Notes: a model not told the origin generated them from the letters alone. Shown: positions 1-29,750, numbered from the stretch's first letter. The stretch: DNA of 64,000 nt from a virus (IMGVR_UViG_3300030035_000024), one strand, 5' to 3'. Program-made: numbers and translations.

Positions 1-1827
1 GGATTTCCAGTAAAATAAGTCACCCTCATGCTTCTTTCGTTCTTCGTTTGTAGTCCATCCAGAAGCCGGGATATTCTGTAAGGTTGGTTCATAGTCATAA
101 AAAAAAGTCTCAATCTGTCCATCGATTTGAGACTGTAAATTATTAATATCAGTTGTGTATGTATTGCTTATAAAATTATTTACTTCTGTTTCTGCTTTTT
201 CCTTTGCAATCGCATTAACATCTTTTCCCTTAACTTGTACGGAATCCGCATTAATAACAACCCTTCCTGTTGTTACATCAACCAGGAAAGTTGTATTTCC
301 GTCTTTGTCAATTGCCTTAATAGTTCCTGTGTTAATCCAGTCAGCATTAACACCTGTAGCAGTAAGGATTCTGGCAATTACATCACCATCAACTGTCATG
401 CCGCCATTCCAATGTTGTCCACCATCTGTAGATACAGCCCACGCTTCCGCAGTCATTTTCCATATAATATCAGAATCGGATAACTGTGGCTTGTTATGAA
501 GATAATAAATGTTGCTTCCGTCCGGCTGTGTTTCCACAGTAGTATATGTACCGGAAGATTCAGACAATCTTTGAGACAATTCTTCAATTGCCTTTTCTCT
601 TTCGGTGCGTTCATCTTTTAAGTTCTTTTTGCTTTCGGCTTGCACCTGTTGGCTTAGTGTATACTGCTTTTGCTTATTCCTAGATACGCTTTTAGCACTG
701 CACTCAAGTTGCTCAAATGCGCCTGGATTCAAAGTAACAGAAGTTAGGAAGCTCTTGTACTGTTTTCCATTTCTATCAGAAATTGCAATGGTGTCACCAG
801 CTTCCCATGCTATATTAGTCAATGCGCCTGTGGTAAATGGTCTGAATTTTAGCCCCACGCACCTGTCTGCGATAATCTGGCAGATTTTCTCCCCGGAGCC
901 CTCTTGGATTAGCCTATTATCACTGATTTCGATAACATAGCCAGATTTCCCCGACTGATATGTTTTTGCTTCATTTTTAGAAGAATTTTCAACGTATTCT
1001 GTAACTTTTATACCTGTTATTTCGATATCGTACAGCCATGGTGTAAATCCGTTTGTTTGAATTGCTGTAATCCCAGTCTGCATGATAGTAATGATTTGTT
1101 CACCAGTGGTATCTAATATGTCGTTACCTTCTACATCTTTCCATGGAGTTTCCACCAAATCATAAAAATTATCCGGGACTTCACGTTCATACCATCCAAA
1201 GCATAAGCGACCATATTCGTCACATTTCGCCCACTGGCAGCCCATCTGTGCTACCCATGCAATTACCTGTCTGAAAGTAATACTGCTATCGTCTGGTCGA
1301 TTCTGGATTATGAAATCATCGTTATCAAATCTTGTAGATTGCAGTGTTACTCCGCAGACTTTACAAGCATCTTGGATAATTTGTAATCTTGTTGCCGGAT
1401 AGGACAGCTTACTTTCTGAATAATCACGATCAAATAATCGCATGGAATCTTCACAAGTTAGGCTAATAATAGCTGTGTTCTGGTATGGAGCATCTGTTAC
1501 CGTCATAGTACAGATACGGATTTTTTCAATACCAGTAGATAATTCAAGTCCAATATAGCAAACAACCCTTGCTCCATCCCAGATGTAATCTGTGTACTTG
1601 CCAGAAAAGTTGTTGATCTGCAAAGTTAGTTTATTTATAATAGCTGCGCCAATATCAAAGGAACCATTTTGCGATACTGCATCCTCAAATTTAAAACCAT
1701 TAGACCATAAGTCTTTGTCGGTAATGGATAATGTGCTTCCGTCCGTAAAGGTAAAATCTGCATATTTCAGATAGTTGCGGTTCCCACTATTCTGTTGTTC
1801 TTTAAATTCCGTTGATAAATTTCGCAT
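1..1827 (-). CDS. Phage tail protein, Tal-like (tail-associated / prophage-tail family), N-terminal >600 aa; the ORF continues past the left window edge
   Basis: Own translation of the minus strand from ATG 1827 (RBS GAGAGG 6 nt upstream) gives MRNLSTEFKEQQNSG..., which stays open to position 1. Not in the ORF track because it runs off the edge. Beta-rich with a Thr/Asn-rich C-terminal part; sits directly downstream of a Dit-like gene. Confidence 0.5.
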   Translation of the reverse strand, partial: MRNLSTEFKEQQNSGNRNYLKYADFTFTDGSTLSITDKDLWSNGFKFEDAVSQNGSFDIGAAIINKLTLQINNFSGKYTDYIWDGARVVCYIGLELSTGIEKIRICTMTVTDAPYQNTAIISLTCEDSMRLFDRDYSESKLSYPATRLQIIQDACKVCGVTLQSTRFDNDDFIIQNRPDDSSITFRQVIAWVAQMGCQWAKCDEYGRLCFGWYEREVPDNFYDLVETPWKDVEGNDILDTTGEQIITIMQTGITAIQTNGFTPWLYDIEITGIKVTEYVENSSKNEAKTYQSGKSGYVIEISDNRLIQEGSGEKICQIIADRCVGLKFRPFTTGALTNIAWEAGDTIAISDRNGKQYKSFLTSVTLNPGAFEQLECSAKSVSRNKQKQYTLSQQVQAESKKNLKDERTEREKAIEELSQRLSESSGTYTTVETQPDGSNIYYLHNKPQLSDSDIIWKMTAEAWAVSTDGGQHWNGGMTVDGDVIARILTATGVNADWINTGTIKAIDKDGNTTFLVDVTTGRVVINADSVQVKGKDVNAIAKEKAETEVNNFISNTYTTDINNLQSQIDGQIETFFYDYEPTLQNIPASGWTTNEERKKHEGDLFYWKS

Positions 1828-2196: not shown

Positions 2197-2296
2197 ATGC
2201 TAACCCTCATGTATTTTTACACACGAAAAAAGCGCCTACCCCGAAAGGTAAACGCTTTAAAAATTGCTTATTATGATTTTATATCATAGCATAGGT

Positions 2297-2328
2297 GGTT
2301 GGTATCATTCAGTATACTTCGGTATCAT
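2297..2328 (-). promoter_or_regulatory. Copy 1 of a 30-bp conserved motif GGTATCATTCAGTATACTTCGGTATCAT (minus strand: ATGATACCGAAGTATACTGAATGATACC); candidate late promoter or activator site
   Basis: A near-identical element recurs at 17410-17440 and 29301-29332, always intergenic and about 40-100 nt upstream of a minus-strand gene block. Contains TATACT flanked by a direct repeat TGATACC. Confidence 0.45.
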
Positions 2329-2427: not shown

Positions 2428-2535
2428 TTAGCTCCACCTTTCTAAAAACAGCTGAATAAAAGTATATAAGTATTCCAGGGTTCCTGGCTTCTCAATGCTC
2501 TCAATCATTGAAATAATTCCCTTTTTGTAATTCAT
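2428..2535 (-). CDS. Small ORF, 35 aa (MNYKKGIISMIESIEKPGTLEYLYTFIQLFLERWS)
   Basis: Its ATG overlaps the TGA of the upstream HNH gene (ATGA). RBS GGAGGAATTGTGG. Ends TAA 2428-2430. Tandem paralog of the 2325-2423 ORF. Confidence 0.25.
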   Translation of the reverse strand: MNYKKGIISMIESIEKPGTLEYLYTFIQLFLERWS

Positions 2536-2891
2536 TCCACAATTCCTCCTAACATTCTAATCAATTTCTGTTTTCGGTTATACTTCAAAATCTCGGAAAT
2601 CTGCCCCATCATATCATCCATTGTCATGTTGCTCTTCATGCTGTTGCAACGCTTACACGCCAGTTGCAGATTCTTAATATCATTGGTGCCGCCACGAGAC
2701 AACGGCATAATGTGGTCGATTGTCATTTTCTTGAATTTGACAGGCTTACCACATATCGCACATTTTCCGTTGCACTTGGCGTACACGCTCTTTTTCTGAA
2801 AGTCATTGAACTGGATTCTATTTGCCATACGATCACGCTTTCTGCTCCATAGATTCAAGAGCCTTAAATTTCTGTCTTGCTTTATTGGCAT
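2532..2891 (-). CDS. HNH homing endonuclease (119 aa)
   Basis: Translation contains CAICGKPVKFKKMTIDHIMPLSRGGTNDIKNLQLACKRCNSMK, the HNH motif with Zn-binding Cys pairs. Confidence 0.8.
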   Translation of the reverse strand: MPIKQDRNLRLLNLWSRKRDRMANRIQFNDFQKKSVYAKCNGKCAICGKPVKFKKMTIDHIMPLSRGGTNDIKNLQLACKRCNSMKSNMTMDDMMGQISEILKYNRKQKLIRMLGGIVE

Positions 2892-3084
2892 AATCGCTCA
2901 AAATCAACAGTTTCATTGTCATAAATTGCTTGTTATATGCAAAGAAAAGGCTTTTCTCTTTGTCCATCTCTTCTGTGCTGTTAAATCCATACTGTTCTAT
3001 GAAATCATCCACAAGAAACTTGATTTTATCAATAGTGTCCTCTACTTCGAACATTGTGTCTTCTCTATCCATATTTTCTGTCAT
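2833..3084 (-). CDS. Hypothetical acidic protein (83 aa)
   Basis: ORF-track ORF MTENMDREDTMFEVEDTIDKIK...; overlaps the extended HNH start, which probably initiates at an internal Met near 2828. Confidence 0.35.
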   Translation of the reverse strand: MTENMDREDTMFEVEDTIDKIKFLVDDFIEQYGFNSTEEMDKEKSLFFAYNKQFMTMKLLILSDYANKARQKFKALESMEQKA

Positions 3085-3120
3085 TTTATTTTCCTCCTGT
3101 GTATCCCTGTAAAAATCTAA

Positions 3121-3936
3121 TTATGCGATTTCTACTCTGTATGCAATCATCATTTCTTTAATCACGCTAACGTAAATATCTTTCAGCCGCTTATTCTGCA
3201 TAATCACGGACAGTTTGTTAATCTGGTTGGTCTGTGCCTTGGTGCAGCCTCTTTCTTCGGCTCTGGAAATCGCATTTCTAAGTTGCTGATCTAATCGGCA
3301 ACCAGCCCTGTCTGATAATCTGCGGTAGCTTTCGTTTCTGGCGGCGGCATATTTATTCCCGAATGAGTAAGAGAAATCATCGCTCTCGGCAATCTTTGAA
3401 ATACATCTGTTTACCCACTTCTCTGTGCCAACATCGGAATCCGTCCCCTTGAAAGTATCAATGATGGTTTTCATGTTCTTCTCTTGTTGGTCGGCACGTT
3501 CCGCAAGTTTCTTCTGTTCCAGTTCAGTCTTGGCTACTTGTTGAAAAATTTGATTGAACATTTGCAGTTCGGGTGACAGCTGATTAATGTTGATTGCTGT
3601 CTGCTTGTATTTCTCTTCCACTTGGATAAAATACTTGCGAACCTGTTTTCCTTTGTCGTTGCGTTCAAGCATTGCCATTTCTTTGGCAGTGTCGAGTTTG
3701 ATGAGGTATTCAATCGTGTGTTTACTGCCTGTTACCTGCTCCTCAATTTTGGGGAGCAGATCAAAATCTTCTTTTTCCTCAGCATCACACTCTGATAATC
3801 TCCTCTTTACCCATGTGGAAAAATCTGTTTTTACTGCTAAGCTTTTATGCAAGTCTTTTCCATATACAACTTTAATTCCTTTTTCGGTTTCGTACACAGG
3901 AACTAATTCATTTTCAATAACCTTTAAATTTGCCAT
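3121..3936 (-). CDS. Phage regulatory protein Rha / antirepressor-like (271 aa)
   Basis: N-terminus ELVPVYETEKGIKVVYGKDLHKSLAVKTDFSTWVKRRL matches the Rha-family pattern. C-terminal part is helical and charged, like ORF6C/KilAC antirepressor tails. Confidence 0.55.
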   Translation of the reverse strand: MANLKVIENELVPVYETEKGIKVVYGKDLHKSLAVKTDFSTWVKRRLSECDAEEKEDFDLLPKIEEQVTGSKHTIEYLIKLDTAKEMAMLERNDKGKQVRKYFIQVEEKYKQTAININQLSPELQMFNQIFQQVAKTELEQKKLAERADQQEKNMKTIIDTFKGTDSDVGTEKWVNRCISKIAESDDFSYSFGNKYAAARNESYRRLSDRAGCRLDQQLRNAISRAEERGCTKAQTNQINKLSVIMQNKRLKDIYVSVIKEMMIAYRVEIA

Positions 3937-4030
3937 AAAAAATCTCCTTTCGGTGTTTACAATTACACCGAAGGGAGATATAATGACAATATCAACCGCT
4001 TCGGTGTGTTGAGGGTTTTAAGAGTAACCG

Positions 4031-4276
4031 CTACTTGTCGAGGGTTTCGGTTGCTCTTATTTCGTTATAGACCTTTTCAATCCCAATTCTAATAATTTCT
4101 GCTTTTGATTTTCCCGTTTTGTCTGAACAATATTCTAATCTCTGGATATCATCGTCAGAAAGCCTTACTGGCATCGAAATCTTTTTAGGATTATCAGTAG
4201 GTCTACCAGTTCTAGGTGACACCTTATCATCTCCTTTCTTTTTTGTATATACATATATTAATATACCGATATACAA
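4031..4276 (-). CDS. Small ribbon-helix-helix-like DNA-binding protein
   Basis: C-terminal KISMPVRLSDDDIQRLEYCSDKTGKSKAEIIRIGIEKVY shows a beta-strand then two helices, typical of CopG/Arc RHH. The true start is likely internal. Confidence 0.35.
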   Translation of the reverse strand: MYIGILIYVYTKKKGDDKVSPRTGRPTDNPKKISMPVRLSDDDIQRLEYCSDKTGKSKAEIIRIGIEKVYNEIRATETLDK

Positions 4277-4377
4277 AAGTCAACCATTATTTTAACTTTT
4301 TTCAAATTTCCTATTCCACTATTCATTTTGGAGTGGTAAAATATGTATATCATACTGATTTAGGGAGGAAAACGCAT

Positions 4378-5535
4378 ATGAAAAAATCCAAAAAGTTACT
4401 GGCAGTTTTGACCATAATGTTACTGATTGTCTGTATGGCAGTTCCAGTATCGGCGGCTTGGAAAATTAGTAAGAGTAAGGCAACACTGTTTACTGGACAA
4501 ACTTTACAGTTGAAATTGTCTGGGACAAAGGGAAAGGCAAAATGGGCTTCCAGTAAAAAGGCTGTTGCAACTGTTAGCAGTACCGGAAAGGTAAAATCGA
4601 AGAAAGCTGGTTCAGCTACAATCACTGCAAAGGTCGGTAAAAAGAAGTACAGCTGTAAATTAACGGTTGAGTCTCCAAAGCTGAATAAAAAGTCATTATC
4701 CTTAACAGTCGGAGGAACAAGCACTTTAAAAGTGACAGGAACCAAACAGGTTGTAAAATGGAAGTCCTCAAAGAAAAGTGTTGTGGTTGTAAACAGCAAA
4801 GGTAAAATTACAGCCAAAAAGGCAGGGACTGCAAATATTACGGCTACAGTCCTGGGAAAGAAATTCACCTGCAAAGTTACTGTGAAAGCTGTTGATGATG
4901 GATTTAACAGCAATCCAGGGGACGATTTCAATGGCAATAACCGAAACAATGACAATAACAATAATCATGGAAATCAAAACACAACTCTCCCATCATACGG
5001 TGTAACTTATCATGCAGAGTCTACACCATATGGGGCTGTGGCGATTCTGGAAAACCATTATGATTACACCATAGAACTTAGAGTTGATTTTGTATATTTT
5101 CTGAATGGTTCTATGATTGGAAAGGAATCTGCTTATAATTATGCTTTTGCTCCACACTCAAAATGTGCGCTTCAGGGTTGGAACTATGACAAAACATGGG
5201 ATTCTTTTAAGATTAATTTAAGTATTGAAAAAGCTTCTTCCAGTATAATAGTTAATAATTCTGGAATACACTATTCAGCCAATTTTGGAGCTGGAAATGT
5301 CATGGTAAAAATAAATAATAGAGGAAGAAAAACCACTTCCACCACTATTGCGGTTGTATTTTATCAGAATGGTAAAATAATTGGATATGATTATCAGTAT
5401 GCTCATGTAGAAAATCCTGGTTCGACTGCTTATCTTGAATTTAGCTTTCCTTATGACAGAAATTATGATACAATAACGCCTGATAAATTTGAAGTATATG
5501 TAAACAACTCTTACACATATGACTGGATGAACTAA
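4378..5535 (+). CDS. Secreted surface protein with three Big_2-like Ig repeats and a C-terminal beta domain
   Basis: ATG 4378 with RBS AGGGAGG. Signal peptide MKKSKKLLAVLTIMLLIVCMAVPVSAAW. Three repeats of about 60 aa (KATLFTGQTLQLKL...ATITAKVGKKKYSCKLTV). One of the few plus-strand genes, so likely moron/lysogeny-expressed. Confidence 0.6.
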   Translation: MKKSKKLLAVLTIMLLIVCMAVPVSAAWKISKSKATLFTGQTLQLKLSGTKGKAKWASSKKAVATVSSTGKVKSKKAGSATITAKVGKKKYSCKLTVESPKLNKKSLSLTVGGTSTLKVTGTKQVVKWKSSKKSVVVVNSKGKITAKKAGTANITATVLGKKFTCKVTVKAVDDGFNSNPGDDFNGNNRNNDNNNNHGNQNTTLPSYGVTYHAESTPYGAVAILENHYDYTIELRVDFVYFLNGSMIGKESAYNYAFAPHSKCALQGWNYDKTWDSFKINLSIEKASSSIIVNNSGIHYSANFGAGNVMVKINNRGRKTTSTTIAVVFYQNGKIIGYDYQYAHVENPGSTAYLEFSFPYDRNYDTITPDKFEVYVNNSYTYDWMN

Positions 5536-5569
5536 GATAAAGGCTAGGGAGAAATCCCTAGCCAATTTT

Positions 5570-6295
5570 TTAATATAAACTTCTAATGTAAGTATTTGTA
5601 AATTCGTTATACTCTCCAACCATATCAATATTATTTACGGAAACGTATCTAGTTTCATATGTTCCTGTATATTCGTCTGTATTTGAGTAAGTAAATTGAG
5701 TAATAAAACTGTAGTCTTTTCCATCATAAGAAAAATCTCCACGTACTTCCGCTAATCCATCACATTCTTTAATTTCGAGTGAATTTTCTCCCCCTGTCCC
5801 GATTCCAAGATTAACCATAGGATTTATATTATACTGCATGAGTTCTTCTGCGGTTCTGCCAATAAATTTCTTAGTATCAGAATCTAAATCGTCTCCGTTT
5901 TTTATCAACCACGGAAACAGATTAGTCCCCATATTTGAAGTTTCTGTCCCATTGTCTACATCATATGTTACATCCAGTAACAATCGTCCAGAATCCGATG
6001 CAAAAACAAGTGAATAAATATCATTATAGTCAAACCAATCTTGATAAGCCATATTTCTAAGCATTTCATGTGATTGTTTAACATAATCCAGAGATTCTTC
6101 CCGTGGAAGAGATACCCTTACGAAAAGGCAAGAAACATTTTCTCCACAATATTCTTCCGCATAAAATGATATCGTGTCAGAACTATAATCAGCCAAATAC
6201 TCATTAACTTGGTCTATGGAAGCCATGACAGGTGTCGCAGTCACCAAACTCGCCATCACGGTTGCAGCAGCAATAACTCTTTTTACTTTCTTCAT
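5570..6295 (-). CDS. Secreted protein of unknown function (241 aa)
   Basis: Signal peptide MKKVKRVIAAATVMASLVTATPVMAS. Convergent with the Big_2 gene. Confidence 0.5.
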   Translation of the reverse strand: MKKVKRVIAAATVMASLVTATPVMASIDQVNEYLADYSSDTISFYAEEYCGENVSCLFVRVSLPREESLDYVKQSHEMLRNMAYQDWFDYNDIYSLVFASDSGRLLLDVTYDVDNGTETSNMGTNLFPWLIKNGDDLDSDTKKFIGRTAEELMQYNINPMVNLGIGTGGENSLEIKECDGLAEVRGDFSYDGKDYSFITQFTYSNTDEYTGTYETRYVSVNNIDMVGEYNEFTNTYIRSLY

Positions 6296-6358
6296 ACTTA
6301 CGTACCTCCCAATACTTGATACCCATATTGTACCACCTCGGGACGCATTCCGAAAGAA

Positions 6359-6583
6359 CTATTTCGCTTTTCTATCAATTTCCGCAGTTACGGCAAACAA
6401 AAGAGCTTCGGCAAATTTCGAACCGACCGAATCAGAGTATTTATCGTGAATCCGGTTTGCTTCCACGGTGAGATTTTCCCACTGCGGAATATCGTCCTTT
6501 GAGATAAAGGCGTACTTCTTGTGGAGGTTCCATATTTCTTGCCAGATGGAGAAATAAGTTTGCTTGAAATTCATCAATACCAC
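6359..6583 (-). CDS. Hypothetical protein (74 aa)
   Basis: ORF-track ORF; overlaps the upstream gene by 10 nt, suggesting translational coupling. Confidence 0.3.
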   Translation of the reverse strand: MVLMNFKQTYFSIWQEIWNLHKKYAFISKDDIPQWENLTVEANRIHDKYSDSVGSKFAEALLFAVTAEIDRKAK

Positions 6584-6906
6584 TTCTCCGTCAGTTGATT
6601 AATCGGTGTTCCGGCAACTCCGGCACTTTCTCCGCTGTCTGTTGCCTTAAAGTATGCACCTATAATCTGAGGGTACATAAATTCAAACATTAAATAATTA
6701 GCTGCATCGCAAAGATATTCTGTATTTCCTGTCTCACGATACTTTTTGATGCACATATCGTGGGATTCCAAGGCGTTTACCAACTTCTCCCCGAAGTTAT
6801 CCTTTGCCGTACCATACTTGTAAAAGCTTACCTCAACCCTATTCTGTCGTAATTTATCGAAACGGTCTGAATATTCTGTTGGAAGTTCTGTTCCTAGTTT
6901 GCTCAT
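6574..6906 (-). CDS. Hypothetical protein (110 aa)
   Basis: ORF-track ORF MSKLGTELPTEYSDRFDKLRQNRVEV...; no recognisable motif. Confidence 0.35.
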   Translation of the reverse strand: MSKLGTELPTEYSDRFDKLRQNRVEVSFYKYGTAKDNFGEKLVNALESHDMCIKKYRETGNTEYLCDAANYLMFEFMYPQIIGAYFKATDSGESAGVAGTPINQLTEKWY

Positions 6907-7025
6907 ATGCTTTAATTCTCCACAATTAATTAATTTCTTGACTCAAAAATCAGTTTTCTTGGCTTGTGCCTATATTTTATCTGGCAAGAGGTTTTGAAAC
7001 GTATTTGGTTATTTTATCATGTCAA

Positions 7026-7469
7026 TTAATTACCCTCATATGTCTCATAATCAATCGTTCCAAGATTACCGTACACATTTGGATAATAAATTCCAACCCA
7101 GAAGTTATCCTCCATTGCTTTGTAGTAAGTTACTTTTACATTCCATCTCTGTACCTCGTCAATAATTTCTTTGTTTAGAAGTCCGAATTGATCTCGGCAA
7201 GCTTCACTTTCCAGTTTGTAAGTCAATGCTTTGTATTTCTCGGCATTTGCCTGTCTGGTGGCGGTAACATTGGTTTTGGTGAGTAGTAAAATCAATCCAG
7301 CTACCAGGAACCATACTACACTGATGAAAGAAATTACCACGCCAAAAGACAATATAAATCCACTCACACTTGAACGCTCATATTCGCAGCTTAAAGATTC
7401 GCCTATTCTATTTGTAATCAGAATAACAACGCCGACCGCAAAAATGATTACTGATAGCCAAAATATCAT
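7026..7469 (-). CDS. Membrane protein, 2 TM helices plus cytoplasmic domain (147 aa)
   Basis: Hydrophobic stretches MIFWLSVIIFAVGVVILI and FGVVISFISVVWFLVAGLILLL. Confidence 0.45.
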   Translation of the reverse strand: MIFWLSVIIFAVGVVILITNRIGESLSCEYERSSVSGFILSFGVVISFISVVWFLVAGLILLLTKTNVTATRQANAEKYKALTYKLESEACRDQFGLLNKEIIDEVQRWNVKVTYYKAMEDNFWVGIYYPNVYGNLGTIDYETYEGN

Positions 7470-8530
7470 AGCATGTCCTCCCTGTCCTCAACTTTCATTA
7501 ACAAATTTTTCCGTATGTAGCCAGACATGAAATGCGAATAATGATGATCCGTGTACTCACTAAATGAAGTGCCAAAGTATTCATCAATCACTTTCATGTA
7601 TGTTTCAATTTCAACATTCTGGAAGTAATCTGGATTTGGCCCGAATCCAAACTTGTCCAGGATATTATCCAAAGCGTCTTGATTGATTTTTATGTGCGGT
7701 TTTCTGGTTCGTTCTTCATACCTCTTGAAGAAATACTTCGATACTACCAGGAAGCGGTTAGTTGTATATGGGCTTGTCGTATATCCCAATTCTTCAAGAC
7801 GCACTGAAACCTGGTTCTTGAATGCAGACCAGTTAAAAGATTTACGGTCTATTGGAGTATACTGGATGTTCTCCTCGGTCAACATATTTTTGATATGTTG
7901 AGAATTGAACCACTCGTTAGAGTGGTATGCATTTTTCTCTTCTTCTTTTAACTCCGTAGGAGATGTAGTATCTGGTTTATCATTAATGTCTGAAATATAA
8001 TCTCTGTTTGTAGTTTTTGGTATTGTTTGACGGTTTGAATCGTATTGATCGTTCATTGGTACTTCATTCATTGCGCACTCATGCGCATTGGAAAAATCAT
8101 CTGGCAAATTAATTTTGTAATCGCTTAAAGGATAACCTTTTTCTTTAAGTGCTTTTGCTATATTTACAAGGCTAACACGATATTGTAAAGTTCTGTCCCA
8201 TTTGTATTTTGGGTTATTTCTTTTTGAAATAAAGCCCATATTAACCAGTTCATTGATATACCGTCTTACTTGGCTTACAGACAAGCCAAGCATGATTTCA
8301 TTGGATAGTTCTTCTGCTGTTTTGTATATCCAGCCATAGAATAATTCCTTTTCTTCTTCACCATTTTTTCGTGCGATTTCATTTTCTTTTTCAATGAATT
8401 TATCTGCATCGGAAACTCTTTCAGACCAATAAATAAATTGTTTTAATATGATTGCTTTACGAAAATCTCCTGTAATAGCAAGCAAATCTTCACGCAAAAC
8501 TACTTTTTTAATTTTCTCCATCTTATTCAC
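7466..8530 (-). CDS. RepA_N-like winged-helix DNA-binding protein (putative replication initiator or regulator), 354 aa
   Basis: N-terminus ...ELFYGWIYKTAEELSNEIMLGLSVSQVRRYINELVNMGFISKRNN resembles the Firmicutes RepA_N winged-helix pattern. Family call is from memory of the motif, not a search. Confidence 0.45.
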   Translation of the reverse strand: MNKMEKIKKVVLREDLLAITGDFRKAIILKQFIYWSERVSDADKFIEKENEIARKNGEEEKELFYGWIYKTAEELSNEIMLGLSVSQVRRYINELVNMGFISKRNNPKYKWDRTLQYRVSLVNIAKALKEKGYPLSDYKINLPDDFSNAHECAMNEVPMNDQYDSNRQTIPKTTNRDYISDINDKPDTTSPTELKEEEKNAYHSNEWFNSQHIKNMLTEENIQYTPIDRKSFNWSAFKNQVSVRLEELGYTTSPYTTNRFLVVSKYFFKRYEERTRKPHIKINQDALDNILDKFGFGPNPDYFQNVEIETYMKVIDEYFGTSFSEYTDHHYSHFMSGYIRKNLLMKVEDREDML

Positions 8531-9341
8531 CTGCCGCTCTGTCTAATTTATCGTGAAATTTGCTATGGCAATTTTCGCATAACACTATGAGATCGTTATC
8601 TGCAACTGATCTCATATGTTCTCGTCCGTGATTTTCATATGTTTTATGGTGGACATTAAGTTTTCCGCTTTTTCCGCATAACTGGCAACGGTAATTTGCA
8701 CTTTTTAACTTATAATTTCTAACTCCATCCCAATACGGTGTATGTAAAAAATCGTTATAATCCATATTGTTAATCTCTTTGCATATTTCGTCTTGATCTG
8801 GGTTAGTTCCATATTTTTGATACATGATATAGTTAATTTTGTCTTTTGCAGATACTCCATCAGTAAAGCAAGCGTTAGGATTTAAATATTCCTTGTATCT
8901 GAGAGTGAGGTTTGCAAGTTCCTCTTTTCTTTCTTTTTCCCATTTTTCACGAGATATAGATTGTTCGATTTTTATCTGCTTCTGATATTCTGTCTCACAT
9001 TCTTCGCATCTGAAATACTCGTTATTAGTGTCTTTATTATTGATACATTTAATCATATTTAAAATTCTAGTTTTAGAAATCATCCGAGTATATATTTTCC
9101 CACAAATAGGGCATTTTATTTGATACTCATATAAAATTTTATCCGTAGGATCTAAATTATCATATCTATAAAATGCATTAGTGATTTCTGTTGTTTTTAC
9201 ATTCATTAGAATTTTCGTAAGTTCAAAGTCGATAAGATCTCCACGTTTTATTAAATTGTCATTTTTTCTGATGTCTGAAAAGACCACATTTTTAATAAAT
9301 TCTTTATTCATATAGATAACCTCCTTGTTGGTCGTAGACAC
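8523..9341 (-). CDS. HNH endonuclease with N-terminal zinc finger (272 aa)
   Basis: CPICGK...CEEC zinc finger. C-terminus CQLCGKSGKLNVHHKTYENHG...DLIVLCENCHSKFH is an HNH motif. Confidence 0.65.
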   Translation of the reverse strand: MSTTNKEVIYMNKEFIKNVVFSDIRKNDNLIKRGDLIDFELTKILMNVKTTEITNAFYRYDNLDPTDKILYEYQIKCPICGKIYTRMISKTRILNMIKCINNKDTNNEYFRCEECETEYQKQIKIEQSISREKWEKERKEELANLTLRYKEYLNPNACFTDGVSAKDKINYIMYQKYGTNPDQDEICKEINNMDYNDFLHTPYWDGVRNYKLKSANYRCQLCGKSGKLNVHHKTYENHGREHMRSVADNDLIVLCENCHSKFHDKLDRAAGE

Positions 9342-9442
9342 TCTCCGTATTGTGCCAGAATCCTTGATTTATAAAAACAGTGGACAGGCGCATCAAGGTT
9401 TACGCTTTTCGGCGGCCAACCTAGCCCACTGAATTTACCATA

Positions 9443-9913
9443 TTAAGCTAAAATCAATCTATTTCCATCATAATGACTCTTTACGTAATCAATTATTTTC
9501 TCGGAATCGTCGGATGTTATATAAAAAGCGTCTTTAATCGGAATATTGTTTATTTTCATAATTTTTACTATTTTCTTTATGTGAAAAACTGTACAACATT
9601 TAAATTCCGTTTGCTCTCTTATAATTTTTCTCACTTTTCCAAAAGAAAACTCATGTTTATCATCAACAATTTTTTGGTTGTATTTTGGCATATATTTTCT
9701 AATATAAAAAATTTCCAATGAATCCAAGTCTTCAAGTTTGCATTTAATAACGGAAACCGAAGTAAAGTGTTTATTTGAATGACTATATGGGCGGAAAAGC
9801 CCTAGCTTAGACTGTCCAATATAAACTACTTCATTACCATCTAAAAGGAAATAAATAATTGGTTCTCTTGCAATCGGAATACGAATGCAATTTGAATTTT
9901 CCTTAAATTCCAT
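9443..9913 (-). CDS. GIY-YIG-superfamily nuclease-like protein (T5orf172-like), about 157 aa
   Basis: PIIYFLLDGNEVVYIGQSKLGLFRPYSHS matches the GIY...YIG spacing followed by R/H. Start taken at an internal Met (MEFKENS...). Confidence 0.4.
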   Translation of the reverse strand: MEFKENSNCIRIPIAREPIIYFLLDGNEVVYIGQSKLGLFRPYSHSNKHFTSVSVIKCKLEDLDSLEIFYIRKYMPKYNQKIVDDKHEFSFGKVRKIIREQTEFKCCTVFHIKKIVKIMKINNIPIKDAFYITSDDSEKIIDYVKSHYDGNRLILA

Positions 9914-10176
9914 AGATTGATACCTGCCTTTCGTATAAAAGAGTGCCTTGAACTGTATGTAAATCAACAGGCAGGCGGCAAGGCATTTCCGCTTTTCGAT
10001 GATCGGTCTAGCCTGTTGGTTTTACCGAAATTTATCGACTTAATAAAAAAAGAGCCGCCAAGTAAGACAAAAAATTCCTCAAAATCGAGAAATATTAATT
10101 TCTTCTTAGCGGCTCAAAAATCAAGACCGTGTGTACTTCTTCATTAAAGAAATCATACCACACAATCAGTCAAAAA

Positions 10177-13100
10177 TCAATATGCCGGGGACGGATTGAA
10201 ACGGCTATTCGTTTCATTCTGGGCTTTTGTTACAGCTTTCGCAATCTCGCTTCCGTCTAAAATAATGCTGTTCATGATGTACTGCGGATTCTTGTTTCCG
10301 CTGTTCATACTCATTGCCATTGCAACTCCCTGGGCTACTGCTTTTGCCATTTCTTCTTTTGTAAGTCCCATGCTTCCGTCCGAACTGGAAACAATGCTGT
10401 CTGCAATCTTCTTCATGGTTCGTGGATTTTCCAGAGGAAGGACAGCTTCGGAACCGGCTTCACCGATACCAATTACCTGTGCGCCATTGAAAAGACCACC
10501 TTTGGCATACCAATTAGGCTTGTAAACTGGTGTAGAACTGGTTCTTCCACCGCCAAGATCATGTTTTCTCCACTCTGAAATATAATAAGTCAGAGTTGGT
10601 AAATGTACTTGTTTCATGCCATCAGCGAATGATTGAGCAGTTTCCCGACCAATTGATGTAAGATTAACATTAAATAGCCTTTTAATTTTATCCGAAATCC
10701 CAGACAAATTGGTTTCTGTATAAGATTTCATTTTCCCAGTTTCCGTGTCAACTTTACCAGAAGCCTTTTCCCAAATCTGGTTTGTATTGATTAGAACAGA
10801 AGACCAATAACTTTGAATGGTTGTCATAACCTTACCCATTACATCTTTTGTATCGGTGTCCATGGTTCCGAGAGCTGTCGATACAGCACTTGCGGAATTT
10901 CCCCAGTTTGTTTTGGAGTTTGTTTCAACATCATCATTCGTGTTCTTTATCTTTGACCAAATGGAAGGCATTGTGCTTTCTGTGCTTTTTTTCATCCCAG
11001 CCATTGCCGTGCTTACAGCTGCACTGGCTATTCCAAAACCAGTCTTAGAGTTTGAAGAAATGGATTTCGTAGCTGTTTCCACTGATTTGCTCATTGTTGA
11101 TGAAGATTTTGGAACATCTTCTGAAAAAGCTTTAATAACTTTTCCTGTGTCAATTCCCATCTCTGCCATTTTATCCATCAAGGCTTGGAATGCGGCTCTG
11201 GCTGTTGCACCAGATGATTCTTGTTGCTGAAGGACAGCACTTAATTCATCAAACTGCGTTGGAGTGATTACTGCTTGATTTGAAAGTCTTTCTAATGCAG
11301 ATTTCGCATTATCAAATTCTGTCCCCATCGTACCGATATATTCATTAATATTACTTACATGAGAATTTGTAGAAGTATCGGATTCTTCCATTGCCTGTTT
11401 TAATGCTTGCTTAAATGTATCGGAAGAAATTCCAAGATTTTCAAGTGATGTTTCTACGGTTTGGAGCTGTCCATCAAAATCAAATGCATTGTCTTTCACA
11501 TTTTTTAAATCACCGCCGAGTCCGATAAGTTTATCGCCAGAGATTCCAGTTTGTTCTTCGATGATTTTCAATGCTTTTCTAACAACTTCAAAATCGTTGA
11601 ATGCGTCAGCTGTGGAATCTTTAAAGTCCATAGCTTTTTTTACCTGTCCAAGACCTTCCACGACAAATGCAGTCGCGCCTAAATTAGTTGCGTATCCCCA
11701 AAATCCTTGGAATTGTCCACCAGCTGTTTGTGCGACATCACCGAGATTTTTTATCTTTTCTGCAAGTGTAGTAAACCCGCCATTTCCAGCCGTTTCCGCT
11801 GCTCCACCAATATCACCGATGATAGTGGGAAGAGAAGATGCGGTATCAAGTGGGAAATTTAAAAGTTTTGAAGCTAATGAACCGATTCCGCTAGCAAAGG
11901 AAAAGATTTTGGTGGCAATATCTTTGGCTATTTTGATTGCAAACAATGTTCCAAATGCAGCACCAACTTGTTTTATAAATTCTGGATCAATTCCACTTAA
12001 TTTTTCAGCCAACCAATTAATTGCATTTGCAATACCGTTAATTAAATCCGCTCCGATATTAATTATTCCTTCAAGCCCGGTAATCAACGCATCTGCAAAT
12101 CCCTCTGCAAATGGTTGGAATGCAGACCATAAATTTCCAAGAGCAGTTCCAACAGCATTCCAATCAACCTTATCAATAAAATTCTGTATTGAGGTTTTTA
12201 CACGGTCAATACTGCTCCAAATCCACTCCCAGTCAACATCAATAACTCCGAAATTATCAAGTGCAAGTACGATTCCACCGATGCCAAGTGCCATTGACGC
12301 ATAAGGATGTTTTGCCAGTAAAGAAAGTCCTTTTCCTAATGGGCTGTCTTTTCCAATGATTCCACCAATAAAGGTTAATCCTTTGAATCCTAGAATCGCC
12401 AAAGAAATTTGGCCGAGACTCTTTCCTATAGCTTGTGCTGTTTCGGGACTTATATTTTTTATTGCTTCTGCGATAGAATTTAGACCTCCAGGAACAGTTG
12501 AATTGATGAAATTCTCTCCGACATTAAGTAAATCTTTATAAAAATCCACAATGCCTTGTCCTACATTCTTTGCAAATGGAGCCAATGCATCCCAGAAATT
12601 TTTCAGTGATTTATTAAGTTCTTCCCAATGAATGTTGTTTCCGAAACTGGTCAACGCATCAACTAATTGTGGAATTGCGCCGTTCATCGTCCAAGTTCCG
12701 ACTGGAACGAGAAAATGCTCGTAAAAATCCATAAGTCCCGTCCAAACAAATTGTGTTGGCTTTTGGAGCATAGTAAACAATCCTTCTAAAGAAGTTTGGA
12801 GCTTTAACCAGTTGATTTTTGTCAGCAAATCATTTGTAATGTTAAAGAATCTTGGAAGTCCTGAGTTGTTTGATAATGACCATTTACCGATTGGCTGTAG
12901 GTAATTCTTCCACAAATTTTTCAAAGCATTAATCGAAAAATTTCCTAGTCTGCTTAGACCTTCATTATAAAGCTTCTTTATTGCGGCAGTGGTTGGCTTT
13001 GCATTCTTTCTGATTTGTTTAAATGCCTTGATAATCTTATCAGATACAGTTTGCGCTTTATTCTCAACATTTGCAAATGCTTGATCCCATGCTTTTTGAT

Positions 13101-15579: not shown

Positions 15580-15992
15580 TGATCCTGCGGAAGCTTCGTT
15601 GCATTCTTCTCCACTGCCTGTGCTTCTGCTACTGCATTCAGCAGACCGGATAAAAAACCATTTTTCTCCAATTCTTTGTCAAGAAGTTGGTATAAATCAA
15701 ATCCGCTTTTCGGATTTTCCTCAGTTCCTTCATCTTCGTAATCATCCAAAAGGTCACAGACTTTATCAAGAGCAGCTTCTTTTTCAGAATCACTTTCATA
15801 CCCAAACTCTTCCTTGTGCTTCTTTTGAAGTCCGGCAAGAAGCAGTTCCGGGAGAAGAGAAATCATCTTCTGAAGGCTTCTCTCTTTTCCATCTGTAATT
15901 CCCTGTACCTTGTCCAGCACATCTGTTTTTGTAAGAAGTCCGTATCCGAATACAACCTTATATTCTTTTCCATGTACATTAAAAGTTACCAT
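15564..15992 (-). CDS. Tail assembly chaperone (gpG-like, 142 aa)
   Basis: Acidic 142-aa protein between the major tail protein and the tape measure. Ends ...QDHKKKN with the slippery sequence at its 3' end. Confidence 0.6.
   Translation of the reverse strand: MVTFNVHGKEYKVVFGYGLLTKTDVLDKVQGITDGKERSLQKMISLLPELLLAGLQKKHKEEFGYESDSEKEAALDKVCDLLDDYEDEGTEENPKSGFDLYQLLDKELEKNGFLSGLLNAVAEAQAVEKNATKLPQDHKKKN
15573..15579 (-). other. -1 programmed ribosomal frameshift slippery heptamer C_AAA_AAG
   Basis: Minus-strand sequence cag gat cac aaa aag aaa aat taa. The G-frame stop is 6 nt downstream, and the -1 frame continues for 138 codons. Confidence 0.45.
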
Positions 15993-17317: not shown

Positions 17318-17409
17318 ATCTGTCACCTCACAATAAAAAATGCGCCCACCTTCATAGTGAACGCATTGCATTTTATGCTACAATTTAACACTGTAATGAT
17401 AACATAATT

Positions 17410-17440
17410 AGTTGGTATCATTCAGTATATTATGGTATCT
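17410..17440 (-). promoter_or_regulatory. Copy 2 of the 30-bp conserved motif (AGTTGGTATCATTCAGTATATTATGGTATCT)
   Basis: Intergenic between 17444 and 17371, upstream of the 16916-17317 gene, holin-like gene and major tail protein block. Confidence 0.45.
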
Positions 17441-17443
17441 TCT

Positions 17444-17995
17444 TTAGGAAGAGAACACCTCTTTGGCGATTTTTCGGATATTCTGAATGATTTCTACGCT
17501 TGCCTTATACATTGGCATTGTGGCTTCTGTACCGTAAGAGCGAACCCATTCGCCAGAATCGGAGACATATACCCAGGAATCGTATTTTCCTTTTCCTTGT
17601 CCGTAAGAACCGATTGTATAACCAAATTCTTCTCCTTTTGGATGTGGGCTAGAACCGGCTGCACCATTGTAGTGAATACCAGCGCCGAATTCAATGAATA
17701 AAATGCTTTTGCCTTCGCATATTAAATGAGCTTCTGCATAGTCACCAAAACTGTTAATTTTGATATAAGTATTGTGGTTCTTATCGGAATCGCCTTGTGC
17801 TGCCAAAATATTTTGGTCAATAACTGGAATCCCTAATTCACATAATCTTTTTATGAAGATTTCATTTTTGCTCCTTAAAGATTTTTGATAATTTTTTATT
17901 TCATCAATAGCTTTTTGGATTGATTTCTGTGATAAGGTACACTTTATTGTCTTACCCATCTTCATTCCCTCTCTTAGAAATTCCGCATCTGGCAA
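17444..17995 (-). CDS. Hypothetical protein (183 aa)
   Basis: ORF-track ORF; Gly-rich segment NGAAGSSPHPKGEEFGYTIGSYGQGKG. Confidence 0.35.
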   Translation of the reverse strand: MPDAEFLREGMKMGKTIKCTLSQKSIQKAIDEIKNYQKSLRSKNEIFIKRLCELGIPVIDQNILAAQGDSDKNHNTYIKINSFGDYAEAHLICEGKSILFIEFGAGIHYNGAAGSSPHPKGEEFGYTIGSYGQGKGKYDSWVYVSDSGEWVRSYGTEATMPMYKASVEIIQNIRKIAKEVFSS

Positions 17996-18388: not shown

Positions 18389-20689
18389 TTAGTTGATTGT
18401 ACCACTAATTGTGTTAATGTTTTTTGGTGCATACAATAGCTCTGTACTATCATCTGTCAGTATTTGTGAGATATACGAGTTTATTGACGTTATAGCCCAC
18501 TGATTTGTTCTCACTCCATTAGGCTGTGTAAATAGCTTAACCTTGCCAATATAAGAATTGTCTATCAAAACACTGGACTTTTTACCATTTCCAGTATATT
18601 GAGAAAGTCCAATTGAAAAAGCATTTTCACGGTTATTAAATATGCAATTGATAAAGGCAAGTCTTGATATATTAAAATCTCTGCCATGTACATAGAATGT
18701 ATAGTCTGATGGTGTTTCGTTTTCAAATTCGCAATTTACAAATTCAACAATTTGCCCTTTTGAAAAGCCACATCCAATAGTGTTAGCGTTTACTGTTGGA
18801 TAATCGTATCCTGTGTAAGAAAATTTGCAATTGTTGTAAATATGCTTTGTATTAAACCATAAAAAGCTGTCTAAACTTTCTTCGTGTAAAACATATCTGC
18901 AATTCTTTCCAATACATTCTAAATCATTTATTTCTACATTTCCTTTAACATTAAGGCATGAATATGTATTACATACTTCGGGTTTTTCATTAAGAACCTC
19001 ACTTGGAATATTTAAGGTAATTTTTGCATTATTGCCATATATAATAACATCATGCAAGAAACTATCTATACTGAATTTTATATCATTAGCTATGTCTTTT
19101 TCAAATAACCCGCTATACAGATGATATTCTTTTGGATTTAAATACACTCTTGTAAATGGTGTTGGGCTTTTCATAAATTCATATAACTCGTTGCTTGAAT
19201 CGATGTGAACGTCAGAATAGCAATCTACTTTTCTTTTTATTGAAAAATAATATTTTTCATTATTATATGTTCTTGGAAAAGCTATAAAACGAATAAATAT
19301 ATTTTCTGCATTACTTGGAATAGTAATAAGTTGATTATCAACTTTCTGTGCATTAATTAAAGCATTGTCAGTACCATTATTAAATATCTGCAAATAAACA
19401 TTTTCGATTCCGTTCATAGGTTTAAAATCTATAACATATTCACCATCATTTTTAAGTAAACTATACTCGTTTGAAGAATAAAGTAAAAATGTAGAGTTTT
19501 CTGTTGGTGTGCCATTAAAAGTTACAACATTATTGGCAAAGCTTAATGACAAGCCATTTGCTTCAAAGTCTTTTTCAACCATAACAGATGTTATGTCAAT
19601 CAAGTTAGATAAATCAGATAATACAAGACTTTCATAATACTTCTCAACGCTAACACTGCCCTTATTTGCCACAGAGTTACATATAGCAAAATAATTTGCT
19701 TCACTGGGAATTTCTAATGTAACATCAACCGTCTCAATTTCAGCTTCCGCTAATGTAACACTTGATACTTTGCTATCCAGACTAAATTCATCATAAGTAT
19801 AAAATACTATATGTGTATAATAAGATTGTTCTGACAAGTTATTAAACAACCCTTTTACTCTTATATACTTGCAACCATTAACATCAATCATATTAGATGT
19901 TGCCCAAGATTCATTATTTTCTTTTCCACCATCTTTTTTTAGTAACGCCCCGTCTGTCATGTTAAGTTGTGCAATTACCGACGATGTTCTGTAAACTATA
20001 TCTTCCTTTAGCGAACCAATAGCTTCTCCCGTTGCTTTTGCTTCTGCAAGCCCACCTTCTATAGTCAATGTAGTGTCTGGCTGTGATACACTCTGGATGT
20101 CCTTAATAGCTTGTTCTTTTGCGGAATTTACATTTTGAACAGCTTCCGCAGATGTGTTTTTAGTAAGCTCCAAAAGCTGATTTATAACATCTTTTTCTTC
20201 CTGTCCTATCTGTGGTTGATCAATCTCGATACCCTCTAGCACTGGTACTTCCGCTATTGCGGTATTCCATTCAACACTAATATTTGAATCGGAATCCGTT
20301 TTAACAGCGCAAACAATAAAACGTACCGTTCCCATATACCTTGCTGCATTTCTTCCAATCAACCAAGAAAAAGTTACATTTTCGCCATCTACAGCTACAT
20401 CATCACAAATGTATTGGTCTTTGATAGAAACATTAAAATCCACACTGCTTACGTTTTCAAAGTTAATTCTGACTGAAAATTTGGATAAATCAAGATTATC
20501 TCCTACAATTTTGGGACATGAAAATTTAATACGTTCTGCATTCTTGTCAGATTGCACCCCACCAACTACGATTGTAGAGGGCACGAAAATAGTCCTTGTC
20601 TTAGCATCAATCGTGCATATATCGGATTCTTCAGAAAGCAAATTAACATCTTCTTTTGCGCTCATAAGTAAATCAAGTGCTGTTGCCAT
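18389..20689 (-). CDS. Large beta-helix protein, putative tail fiber or tailspike (766 aa)
   Basis: Asn/Ser/Ile-rich repeats typical of a right-handed beta-helix (...VNCEFENETPSDYTFYVHGRDFNISRLAFINCIFNNRENAFSIGL...). Confidence 0.5.
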   Translation of the reverse strand: MATALDLLMSAKEDVNLLSEESDICTIDAKTRTIFVPSTIVVGGVQSDKNAERIKFSCPKIVGDNLDLSKFSVRINFENVSSVDFNVSIKDQYICDDVAVDGENVTFSWLIGRNAARYMGTVRFIVCAVKTDSDSNISVEWNTAIAEVPVLEGIEIDQPQIGQEEKDVINQLLELTKNTSAEAVQNVNSAKEQAIKDIQSVSQPDTTLTIEGGLAEAKATGEAIGSLKEDIVYRTSSVIAQLNMTDGALLKKDGGKENNESWATSNMIDVNGCKYIRVKGLFNNLSEQSYYTHIVFYTYDEFSLDSKVSSVTLAEAEIETVDVTLEIPSEANYFAICNSVANKGSVSVEKYYESLVLSDLSNLIDITSVMVEKDFEANGLSLSFANNVVTFNGTPTENSTFLLYSSNEYSLLKNDGEYVIDFKPMNGIENVYLQIFNNGTDNALINAQKVDNQLITIPSNAENIFIRFIAFPRTYNNEKYYFSIKRKVDCYSDVHIDSSNELYEFMKSPTPFTRVYLNPKEYHLYSGLFEKDIANDIKFSIDSFLHDVIIYGNNAKITLNIPSEVLNEKPEVCNTYSCLNVKGNVEINDLECIGKNCRYVLHEESLDSFLWFNTKHIYNNCKFSYTGYDYPTVNANTIGCGFSKGQIVEFVNCEFENETPSDYTFYVHGRDFNISRLAFINCIFNNRENAFSIGLSQYTGNGKKSSVLIDNSYIGKVKLFTQPNGVRTNQWAITSINSYISQILTDDSTELLYAPKNINTISGTIN

Positions 20690-21393: not shown

Positions 21394-21468
21394 GGCTTAT
21401 CACCATCCTTTTCTCAACTAAAAAGCCCCTGTCGCACTACTGCAACAAGGGCTTAATCAATATTGTAA

Positions 21469-24291: not shown

Positions 24292-24531
24292 CTATGAATA
24301 CAAAGAAAAGCCCCGACAATACATCGGGGCAACTTTCACAATTTTCTTCTTTAATTTTCTGTTTATGCGGTCTACGGTTCTTGTGCTGTAGCCCATAATT
24401 TCTGAAGCTTCTGCAAGCGTTTTTTCTTCATAAACACGCAATCGGAATAACTCCTTTTCTCTGGAATCAAATCCAGCTTCACGCAAATAGAAGATTCTTT
24501 CATCTTCTGAAAAGTCTTTATAATCATCCAT
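24292..24531 (-). CDS. Sigma-70 region-4-like HTH protein (79 aa)
   Basis: LAEASEIMGYSTRTVDRINRKLKKKI, an r4-type HTH. Too short for a complete sigma factor. Confidence 0.4.
   Translation of the reverse strand: MDDYKDFSEDERIFYLREAGFDSREKELFRLRVYEEKTLAEASEIMGYSTRTVDRINRKLKKKIVKVAPMYCRGFSLYS
24305..24335 (-). terminator. Rho-independent terminator overlapping the last codons of the sigma-r4-like gene
   Basis: Minus strand GCCCCGATGTATTGTCGGGGC followed by TTTTCTTTGT. Confidence 0.45.
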
Positions 24532-27572: not shown

Positions 27573-27737
27573 TGAAATCTCCTTTCTTCCAGTCCAATAC
27601 GCTTTTTCAACACGGTTCGCTCCGCACATGGTCTGTACCCGATTTACGCTCACGGGCTGTTGCAATTTATTTGATTTTGGGTATTAAAAAAGAAGCCTTA
27701 GATTTCTCTAAAACTCCTTAAATAATCGAAATTTGGT

Positions 27738-29222: not shown

Positions 29223-29300
29223 AGCCGAACCATCCTTTCTACAAAATAAAAAGCACTGGATGTTTTAATCCAATGCTCTACTTTATATTCTACACATATT

Positions 29301-29332
29301 AAAAGTATCTTTCAGTATACTTCGGTATCATC
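29301..29332 (-). promoter_or_regulatory. Copy 3 of the 30-bp conserved motif (AAAAGTATCTTTCAGTATACTTCGGTATCATC)
   Basis: Lies about 80 nt upstream of the portal start and overlaps the stop codon of the ArpU-like gene. Confidence 0.45.
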
Positions 29333-29750
29333 TTTCAAAACCTTTTATCTTTTTTATTTCTGCTATGGCTTTTAAATGCTTTTTTTTAATGTGAATCTCT
29401 GAATAACCCATCTCATCTGCAATGCGAACCAAAGATTTGTACTCAACATAGTGCTTAAATAATATGTCATACAGTAATGGGTCTTCAACCTGTTCTATAG
29501 TTCGGACTATTTCTTGCCTTTTTTGCAAAAATTCGGATATCATTTTTGAAATCTCTTCTCGCAGATCAAATATCTTTGCAACCATATCTCCCATCGGATC
29601 ACGTTTTACAGAAGTTTGCACCTTTTCTCCAACAGGGATTGCAGATACACTTGTGGAAAGAGAACTGAGCTGTTCTTCTTCAATAAGCTTATTTTTGATT
29701 CTGTTATCATAATTTTCAATTTGTCGTAAATATTGAGCTGTAGTCATCAT
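29328..29750 (-). CDS. ArpU-like / sigma-r4-like phage late transcriptional regulator (140 aa)
   Basis: C-terminal HTH LVRIADEMGYSEIHIKKKHLKAI. Size and placement next to the terminase are typical of the ArpU family. Confidence 0.4.
   Translation of the reverse strand: MMTTAQYLRQIENYDNRIKNKLIEEEQLSSLSTSVSAIPVGEKVQTSVKRDPMGDMVAKIFDLREEISKMISEFLQKRQEIVRTIEQVEDPLLYDILFKHYVEYKSLVRIADEMGYSEIHIKKKHLKAIAEIKKIKGFER

Follow-up and report, generated by a model that had tools for sequence, protein, structure and literature searches.

In many Firmicute phages, packaging, lysis, and transduction are under the control of late activators of the Ltr superfamily; phages that mobilise staphylococcal pathogenicity islands are among them. 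ArpU and LtrB are members of this one superfamily, and proteins with the domain DUF1492 constitute its family III, LtrB (PMC3753634). These late activators work via direct repeats that are located "immediately distal" to their own gene. The repeats are needed for activation, purified ArpU and LtrC bind them in EMSA, and the repeat block alone is necessary and sufficient for specificity on unrelated downstream DNA (PMC3753634). A terS reporter responded to the cognate DUF1492 protein of a Streptococcus suis prophage, and the ltr-terS intergenic region holds a terminator (PMC3753634). For the Ltr protein of phi13, four repeats at -107..-42 have been described (2026 paper, PMC13123087). RinA depends on DNA that lies over 155 bp ahead of the mapped 5' end of terS, and its mechanism was called 'more complex' (Ferrer 2011, PMC3152322). 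According to a summarising statement in the same paper, the activator site of Mu C lies at -30..-55 (PMC3152322). No paper linking RinA, ArpU, or Ltr to antitermination was found.

The DNA considered here is a stretch of 64,000 nt (IMGVR_UViG_3300030035_000024), referred to as a whole as the window, from a phage of an uncultured host. It contains a short element in three copies. As stated in an initial annotation of this DNA, all three are located ahead of structural-gene blocks (identified here as portal/head for copy 3, major tail/tape-measure for copy 2, and DUF6711 plus phrog_6616 for copy 1), and a phage-specific late promoter or activator site is still the best reading of the element.

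Anatomy of the three cassettes

The sequences of the copies were confirmed at all three places, with the coordinates originally given for copy 3 being offset by 1 nt relative to those of copies 1 and 2. A 25-nt core, GTATCWTTCAGTATAYTWYGGTATC, occurs exactly three times in the window (2302-2326, 17415-17439, and 29305-29329). Chance copies are as improbable as had been assumed, with 0 expected from 100 dinucleotide-preserving shuffles, and a fourth copy of the core was not found in the window at up to three mismatches. The near-identity first ascribed to the copies holds for this core but not over 32 nt, because the full 32-mer finds no match but itself with three mismatches allowed. Among the direct repeats of the window, the element forms the top-ranking family (44 nt; the other copies are 82% and 64% identical to copy 1), and the likeness between the copies fades after about 44-45 bp.

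On the gene (minus) strand, the element consists of three 7-nt direct repeats with a spacing of 10 bp, TGATACC-gaa-GTATACT-gaa-TGATACC, and not of two half-sites around a -10 hexamer, as had been proposed. Nor are all copies intergenic, since in copies 1 and 3 the preceding ORF ends with a TGA inside unit 1 (2325-2327 and 29328-29330, respectively); in copy 2, unit 1 begins 3 nt past the TAA stop codon of the ORF 17444-17995. Between the end of the repeats and the next start codon lie about 80-105 nt instead of the 40-100 nt estimated before. Isolated half-sites (KGATACY) are scattered and uninformative, with 38 observed versus 22 expected. A good -35 is absent, in agreement with the initial annotation. 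Past the third repeat, an extended -10 (TRTG followed by a TATAAT-like hexamer) is found at a distance of 12-13 nt, with 8 variable nt before TRTG. Every copy is then followed by an intrinsic terminator inside the 5' leader. Neither feature had been noted before, and the terminator changes the mechanistic picture. The parts of the three cassettes are as follows.

Cassette 1
2325-2423: ORF of 32 aa that ends in unit 1
2301..2327, minus strand: operator with TGATACC (2321-2327), GTATACT (2311-2317), and TGATACC (2301-2307)
2283..2293, minus strand: extended -10, TATG-C-TATGAT, with a predicted start at ~2276
2223..2258, minus strand: leader terminator, hairpin 2229-2258 plus U-run
After the terminator: ribosome-binding site, ATG 2196 of a DUF6711 protein, then a tail protein at 1-1827 (phrog_6616)

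Cassette 2
17414..17440, minus strand: operator with AGATACC (17434-17440), ATATACT (17424-17430), and TGATACC (17414-17420)
17396..17406, minus strand: extended -10, TATG-T-TATCAT, with a predicted start at ~17389
17333..17367, minus strand: leader terminator, hairpin 17339-17367 plus U-run
After the terminator: GAGGTG ribosome-binding site, ATG 17317 of a 133-aa protein, then a holin-like gene, the major tail gene, and the tape-measure gene

Cassette 3
29304..29330, minus strand: operator with TGATACC (29324-29330), GTATACT (29314-29320), and AGATACT (29304-29310)
29287..29296, minus strand: -16/-10 element, TGTG+TAGAAT, with a predicted start at ~29279-29280
29241..29279, minus strand: leader terminator, 12-bp hairpin 29250-29279 plus U-run
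After the terminator: portal gene starting at 29222 (TTG) or 29210 (ATG), followed by scaffold and major head genes

The extended -10 of cassette 1 reads TGCTATAAT in many relatives. Three leader-plus-terminator types, A, B, and C, were distinguished among relatives as counterparts of the three window cassettes. The register of the extended -10, which was assigned purely by consensus, stays at 12-13 nt in all three types and in both clades described below. In type C, TG is adjacent to the hexamer and the one-base separation is missing.

The leader hairpins have stems of 12-13 bp with G.U pairs that form on the gene strand only, followed by a U-run, and all three were called terminators in a scan (-15 to -18.5 kcal/mol, z = -2.7 to -4.5). 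The values are -18.5 kcal/mol and z = -4.2 for cassette 1, and -15.1 kcal/mol and z = -4.5 for cassette 3, the hairpin of which is kept in relatives. The hairpins begin at +0 to +22 from the predicted start, the ribosome-binding site follows the U-run within 6-20 nt, and the whole cassette from the repeats to the ribosome-binding site fits within about 130 bp. The 6-20 nt after the U-run leave no room for a promoter between terminator and ribosome-binding site. Thus, every late mRNA would be made by read-through of the terminator. Other functions of the hairpin were considered and rejected. A 5' stabiliser hairpin would suit type C (+0 to +2) only, since in types A and B the hairpin starts at +17 to +22, and U-runs are present in all types. 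An RNA antiterminator, in which UACC of a repeat pairs with the 3' arm of the terminator, seems possible by eye in cassettes 1 and 2 and was dropped because cassette 3 cannot form it. Rfam returned no match for the window cassettes at the gathering score, nor for eight distant loci at E<=1.

Conservation of the cassette

The search for further copies in relatives, which had been suggested at the outset, retrieved the core from at least 120 stretches of IMG/VR, mostly on related contigs of about 80 kb and with three matches in several of them; the way these relatives were found, with a search pattern, accounts in part for the invariance of their core. An alignment of 87 unique contexts on the element shows TRTG without variation at +33..36, then the hexamer, whereas the 8-nt spacer varies. 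A terminator is predicted in the 130 nt that follow the -10 in 88 of 90 unique contexts, as compared with 89 of 2000 random windows (4.5%); the two contexts that lack it are L035 and L119. At position 6 of the type B terminator stem, G-C, G.U, and A-U pairs occur across relatives.

Both L035 and L119 are plasmid-like elements (contigs IMGVR_UViG_3300030441_000098, 20,215 bp, and 3300029234_000025, 19,764 bp; L035 7765-8068, plus strand), in which the triple repeat and TGTTATATT precede a gene for a 58-aa HTH protein. Among their other genes are those for a Rep3 initiator and for ParA, and one that is tyrosine-recombinase-like. The 24-kb contig L155 has a similar look and carries a sister-clade operator. 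The operator of L035 and L119 may belong to a promoter of a plasmid or satellite under the influence of the phage's LtrB; its presence there, without the terminator, suggests that other replicons listen to the phage late signal.

The cassettes are flanked by at least ten different upstream genes and at least seven different downstream contexts. Type A is found after at least six and before at least four different genes, beside genes for HNH endonucleases, and hybrid C+A cassettes exist (L007, L030, L039, and L044). Such a distribution could indicate that the element is no promoter at all but a boundary at which gene cassettes are shuffled by recombination or mobility, or else an RNA signal in the 3' UTR of the upstream gene. 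The likeness of the copies ends after about 45 bp, however, and the surroundings of copies 2 and 3 are syntenic among relatives, with no mobile genes nearby; on the same grounds, the mobile-element end or longer dispersed repeat that the initial annotation had named as a counter-explanation was discarded. The place right after the ltrB stop codon, the 10-bp phasing, the -10 at a fixed distance, the change of the repeats with the protein, and the lack of a match to any Rfam family all speak against such a boundary or RNA signal as well, and it can be given almost no credence.

In a sister clade, whose LtrB is 72% identical, the sequence TGATACC-ttt-TGATACT-gaa-TGATACT follows ltrB and a second cassette is located elsewhere in the same contig, both with TATAAT at the same distance and a terminator. 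This bears on the initial annotation, in which the TATACT inside the element was taken as the -10, flanked by two TGATACC half-sites, which would put the start within the third unit. The hexamer does match TATAAT at five of six positions in all three window copies, and the late promoter of TP901-1 uses TATACT too. But AGTATACT is a palindrome that fits the repeat unit K-[GT]ATAC-Y, and the hexamer has no accompanying TG or -35. The sister clade has TGATACT as the middle unit, which argues against the embedded hexamer as the -10, and it keeps TATAAT downstream; the invariant TRTG-TATAAT element, at a fixed distance despite the variable spacer, is also the better -10 of the two. The earlier assignment is thus very improbable, and from the sequence comparison the embedded TATACT is probably just the middle repeat.

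An LtrB with 52% identity has a different predicted recognition helix. It is followed by other repeats, GCAATCATAT / GGAATCATAT, and these by TATAAT and a terminator. The repeats of more distant homologues are TGTCCTA x4, CCTATG x5, and CGCAACT x4. The joint change of the repeat sequence and the predicted recognition helix of the protein points to a protein-DNA site.

The order of stop codon, direct repeats, extended -10, leader, terminator, and ribosome-binding site is also found in all eight distant annotated DUF1492 phages, i.e., Ruminococcus phage NatCom_3870, Erysipelothrix phi1605, S. thermophilus 7201, Javan288, Javan630, Acutalibacteraceae NatCom_991, a Terrisporobacter phage, and an Oscillospirales phage. 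Of 12 prophage or MAG loci (Lachnospiraceae, Faecalibacterium, and relatives), about 9 show the same order. Leader terminators before an HNH gene look alike by eye (~AGCCTYRTGGG...CCCRYRRGGCTTTTcTTATGCC) in Erysipelothrix, Acutalibacteraceae, Streptococcus uberis, and Terrisporobacter phages (L133 ~2485-2550, L136, L135, and L137 1695-1740). The annotated HNH start of the Terrisporobacter phage (L137 1702) lies inside the hairpin and is probably wrong; a GTG at ~1745 fits better.

The proposed regulator LtrB and the passage of the leader terminator

Two genes of the window are considered here.

29331..29750, minus strand: ltrB-like regulator gene, 140 aa, DUF1492, with its TGA stop codon (29328-29330) inside unit 1 of cassette 3
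24292..24531, minus strand: gene for a 79-aa sigma-70 region-4-only protein in the head module (Pfam Sigma70_r4, 4.4e-7)

The 140-aa gene next to copy 3 is the obvious regulator, as had been supposed. Its assignment as ArpU-like was right as to a regulator and is to be corrected as to the family: the protein matches Pfam DUF1492 with 24.9 bits (cut-off 21.5) and phrog_36 with 3.6e-19, and its homologues carry the precomputed Pfam domain PF07374. In NCBIfam, no ArpU-family model was matched, the only hit being a weak one to the sigma70-ECF superfamily (20.7 bits versus a cut-off of 42.9), so that membership in the ArpU family was rejected. Tblastn with LtrB retrieves the DUF1492 genes of the Streptococcus phages Sfi21 and 7201 (24-25% identity, 83% of the query) and also reaches Ruminococcus, Erysipelothrix, and other phages. 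The phage thus encodes a member of the Ltr superfamily, and at copy 3 the direct repeats are located immediately distal to its gene, as is typical of Ltr systems.

An AlphaFold model of LtrB (pLDDT 76.7) consists of two long N-terminal helices and a confident three-helix C-terminal domain, which in this model superposes on the -35-binding region-4 domains of sigma factors (TM 0.66-0.80 to target). No significant match of the whole protein, including to ECF sigmas, was found with Foldseek in the PDB (none at E<=1e-3), and a PDB sequence search yielded chance matches only. An alternative sigma factor was rejected, as the modelled likeness is confined to region 4 in the C-terminal domain and the -10 is of the host sigma-A type (TRTGnTATAAT).

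The 79-aa protein has a counterpart in relatives (15739-15999 in L127) and was ruled out as a paralogue of LtrB, BLASTP finding no similarity. A strong terminator (24310-24330) lies within the 3' end of its gene. The 79-aa protein may be a second player, either as a second-tier regulator or as a modulator of LtrB.

Each copy of the element is here read as the operator of an LtrB-dependent late promoter within a promoter-plus-terminator cassette that is present in triplicate, a reading to which a probability of roughly 70% is assigned. It starts from the observed anatomy, its conservation, and the family of the regulator, and by analogy with the published Ltr systems LtrB would bind the repeats and activate transcription. 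LtrB, probably as a multimer, as its N-terminal helices predict, would contact the three 7-nt repeats, which at a 10-bp spacing lie on the same face. Being centred near -48, -38, and -28, they would thus occupy the place of the missing -35, and LtrB would help host sigma-A RNA polymerase to use the invariant extended -10 (TRTG-N-TATAAT). Transcription is predicted to start 0-22 nt upstream of the leader terminator hairpin. The terminator may serve to stop read-through from upstream (earlier or accessory) genes that abut the operator. Against LtrB as the binder, it can be held that the 79-aa region-4 protein could be the binder or a co-factor.

The cassettes are found at the start of the head (3), tail (2), and tail-tip (1) modules, which they would switch on, with the last of them, cassette 1, restarting late transcription past a variable accessory island. 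This island (2532-9967, about 8 kb) is located between the tape-measure gene and cassette 1 with the tail-tip genes, which would therefore need a fresh promoter. It contains genes for two HNH endonucleases, a DnaD-like protein, and an AntA anti-repressor, an Ig-domain gene (4216-5535, plus strand), and a bidirectional terminator (5542-5563). Its content differs among relatives, where at least six different genes end at a type A cassette. A 174-aa ORF (9443-9967) that follows closely on the tape-measure gene is flanked by two matches to the int-alpA RNA motif of Rfam (RF02996), both above the gathering score (9362-9431 and 9946-10018, minus strand; 53.6 and 45.4 bits).

Elsewhere in the window, a tRNA cluster is encoded on the minus strand (35758-35829, 37579-37692, 37752-37823, 38114-38186, and 38336-38408). 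Its tRNA-Ser(tga) lacks the expected long variable arm because it has only 72 nt, and 37579-37692 is a 114-nt tRNA-like stretch by Rfam that ARAGORN did not report. A 39-nt repeat with two copies 503 nt apart (34897-34935 and 35400-35438, plus strand; 77% identity) is located near the tRNA-Ser gene.

Within the late region, three further terminators were identified.

21423..21454, minus strand: internal terminator without an operator upstream
24310-24330: internal terminator
27690-27719: internal terminator

All three are positionally kept in L127, a relative with 72% identity (18869-18900, 15940-15960, and 12600-12619), and the one at 18869-18900 has compensatory changes in the stem. Late transcripts must cross all of them.

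Activation of initiation by LtrB is incomplete as an explanation, because a terminator 30-50 nt past the start would waste most transcripts unless it is suppressed. Polymerase may pass it by leakiness or by a resistance that LtrB confers as Q does. On the latter reading, the extended -10 promoter would be largely constitutive and give rise to a short terminated RNA, and repeat-bound LtrB would load onto the initiating or promoter-proximal polymerase and make it terminator-resistant, so that the regulated step is the leader terminator and not initiation, as for lambda Q at PR'-tR'. The strong terminator 30-50 nt past the promoter in 88/90 contexts fits such a Q-like switch, and the near-consensus -10 with TRTG is of a type able to work without a -35; the repeats, however, are placed where a class II activator would sit. 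The recurrence of the same order in distant DUF1492 phages and the terminator between repeats and terS in TP901-1 and 80alpha are in its favour, as are the three conserved terminators inside the head module, but processive antitermination would need one promoter and three are present. AT-rich -10-like hexamers in the leaders are uninformative, and no conserved pause-inducing element common to the three leader types was found. Published reporters cannot tell activation from promoter-dependent antitermination, and the need of RinA for DNA beyond 155 bp, with the terminator lying between, was left unexplained (Ferrer 2011). At the protein level, LtrB has weak matches to Phage_antitermQ (7.6e-4) and to phrog_79, 'Q-like' (1.1e-5), over the HTH. 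The former covers residues 80-128 only, represents a generic HTH, and is below the Pfam cut-off (19.8 versus 26 bits). Since no Q protein is among the top 50 Foldseek matches in the PDB, where none reached E<=1e-3, LtrB was not accepted as a member of a Q family. Overall, regulation at the terminator in place of initiation is the less probable reading, though one to be taken seriously.

A related proposal, which is tentative and less likely than not, is that LtrB, and perhaps the whole Ltr superfamily including RinA, ArpU, LtrC, and Alt, is loaded at the repeats to render polymerase terminator-resistant, the leader terminator being the real late switch. If so, a Q-like mechanism would be realised by an unrelated protein with a sigma region-4-like domain. 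This would account for the presence of a terminator past the repeats and ahead of the first late gene in all families studied here, for the conserved terminators inside the late operon, and for the need of RinA for DNA at over 155 bp from the mapped terS 5' end on its upstream side.

The proposed LtrB-dependent late-promoter cassette of this gut-phage family represents an unusually clean and compact version of Ltr control, with about 130 bp, three cassettes per genome, and more than 100 natural variants. In LtrB-family phages, the only recognisable promoter is located upstream of the terminator, which reduces the question 'activator or antiterminator?' to a simple reporter or in vitro transcription assay. 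The cassette can also serve as an annotation marker for late transcription units of uncultured Clostridia phages and as a compact phage-inducible promoter part.

Comparison with known late-control systems

T4 MotA/AsiA is a class II-type phage activator that replaces recognition of the -35. The cassettes resemble the promoters controlled by this system and by Mu C in that the activator site overlaps the -35 region while a good host-type -10 is kept. In contrast, the proteins are unrelated to LtrB, and their promoters have no built-in leader terminator.

In lambda-type Q systems (PR'-qut-tR'; Stx phages, PMC7547250), the late promoter is closely followed by an intrinsic terminator, the regulator has a DNA site in the promoter, and further terminators are located inside the late operon. 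The same layout is predicted here, with a terminator in the leader shortly past the late promoter in 88 of the 90 contexts. Unlike in these systems, the site consists of three direct repeats over -51 to -25, there are three promoters, and LtrB falls outside the Q families by Pfam cut-off and by fold.

The Alt/P-late system of TP901-1 is closer in its layout. Four imperfect repeats with a phasing of 10-11 bp follow right after alt (L151 493-535), in agreement with the published binding region at -76..-32 as it is cited in a statement in PMC3152322, from which, together with the sequence, the start position was inferred. An extended -10, TGATATACT (559-567), is present, and an intrinsic terminator (1019-1039) immediately precedes the ribosome-binding site of terS. 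Alt and LtrB, however, are of different protein families; TP901-1 has one such promoter only, and its leader of about 450 nt contains two tRNA genes (L151 635-709 and 789-876). A tRNA gene is also located between late promoter and terminator in the leader of L139 (3520-3595). Thus, in L139 and TP901-1 the short promoter-proximal unit has a product of its own.

In the rinA-terS spacer of the RinA-controlled phage 80alpha (L122 1719-1908), TGGCAGT x2 is followed 10 nt later by TAAAAT and then by a terminator (1836-1859) 48 nt before terS. The published 5' end, 24 nt before terS, is located past this terminator. With a promoter beside the repeats, the '>155 bp' requirement of Ferrer 2011 would no longer be puzzling.

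The closest counterparts are the Ltr systems themselves. They share the small regulator with a C-terminal sigma region 4-like part, the two to four direct repeats of about 7 nt right after the regulator stop codon and upstream of the morphogenesis genes, the terminator in the same intergenic region, and a repeat specificity that varies with the protein. In the published phages, however, one late promoter is located before terS, whereas the window has three dispersed cassettes, and its ltrB lies between terL (upstream) and the portal gene, not before terS. Furthermore, the -10 is upstream of the terminator here, whereas the papers place the terminator before the terS promoter. The element is therefore of a known kind, the direct-repeat operators of Ltr-type activators; what is new is its use in three modular promoter-terminator cassettes.
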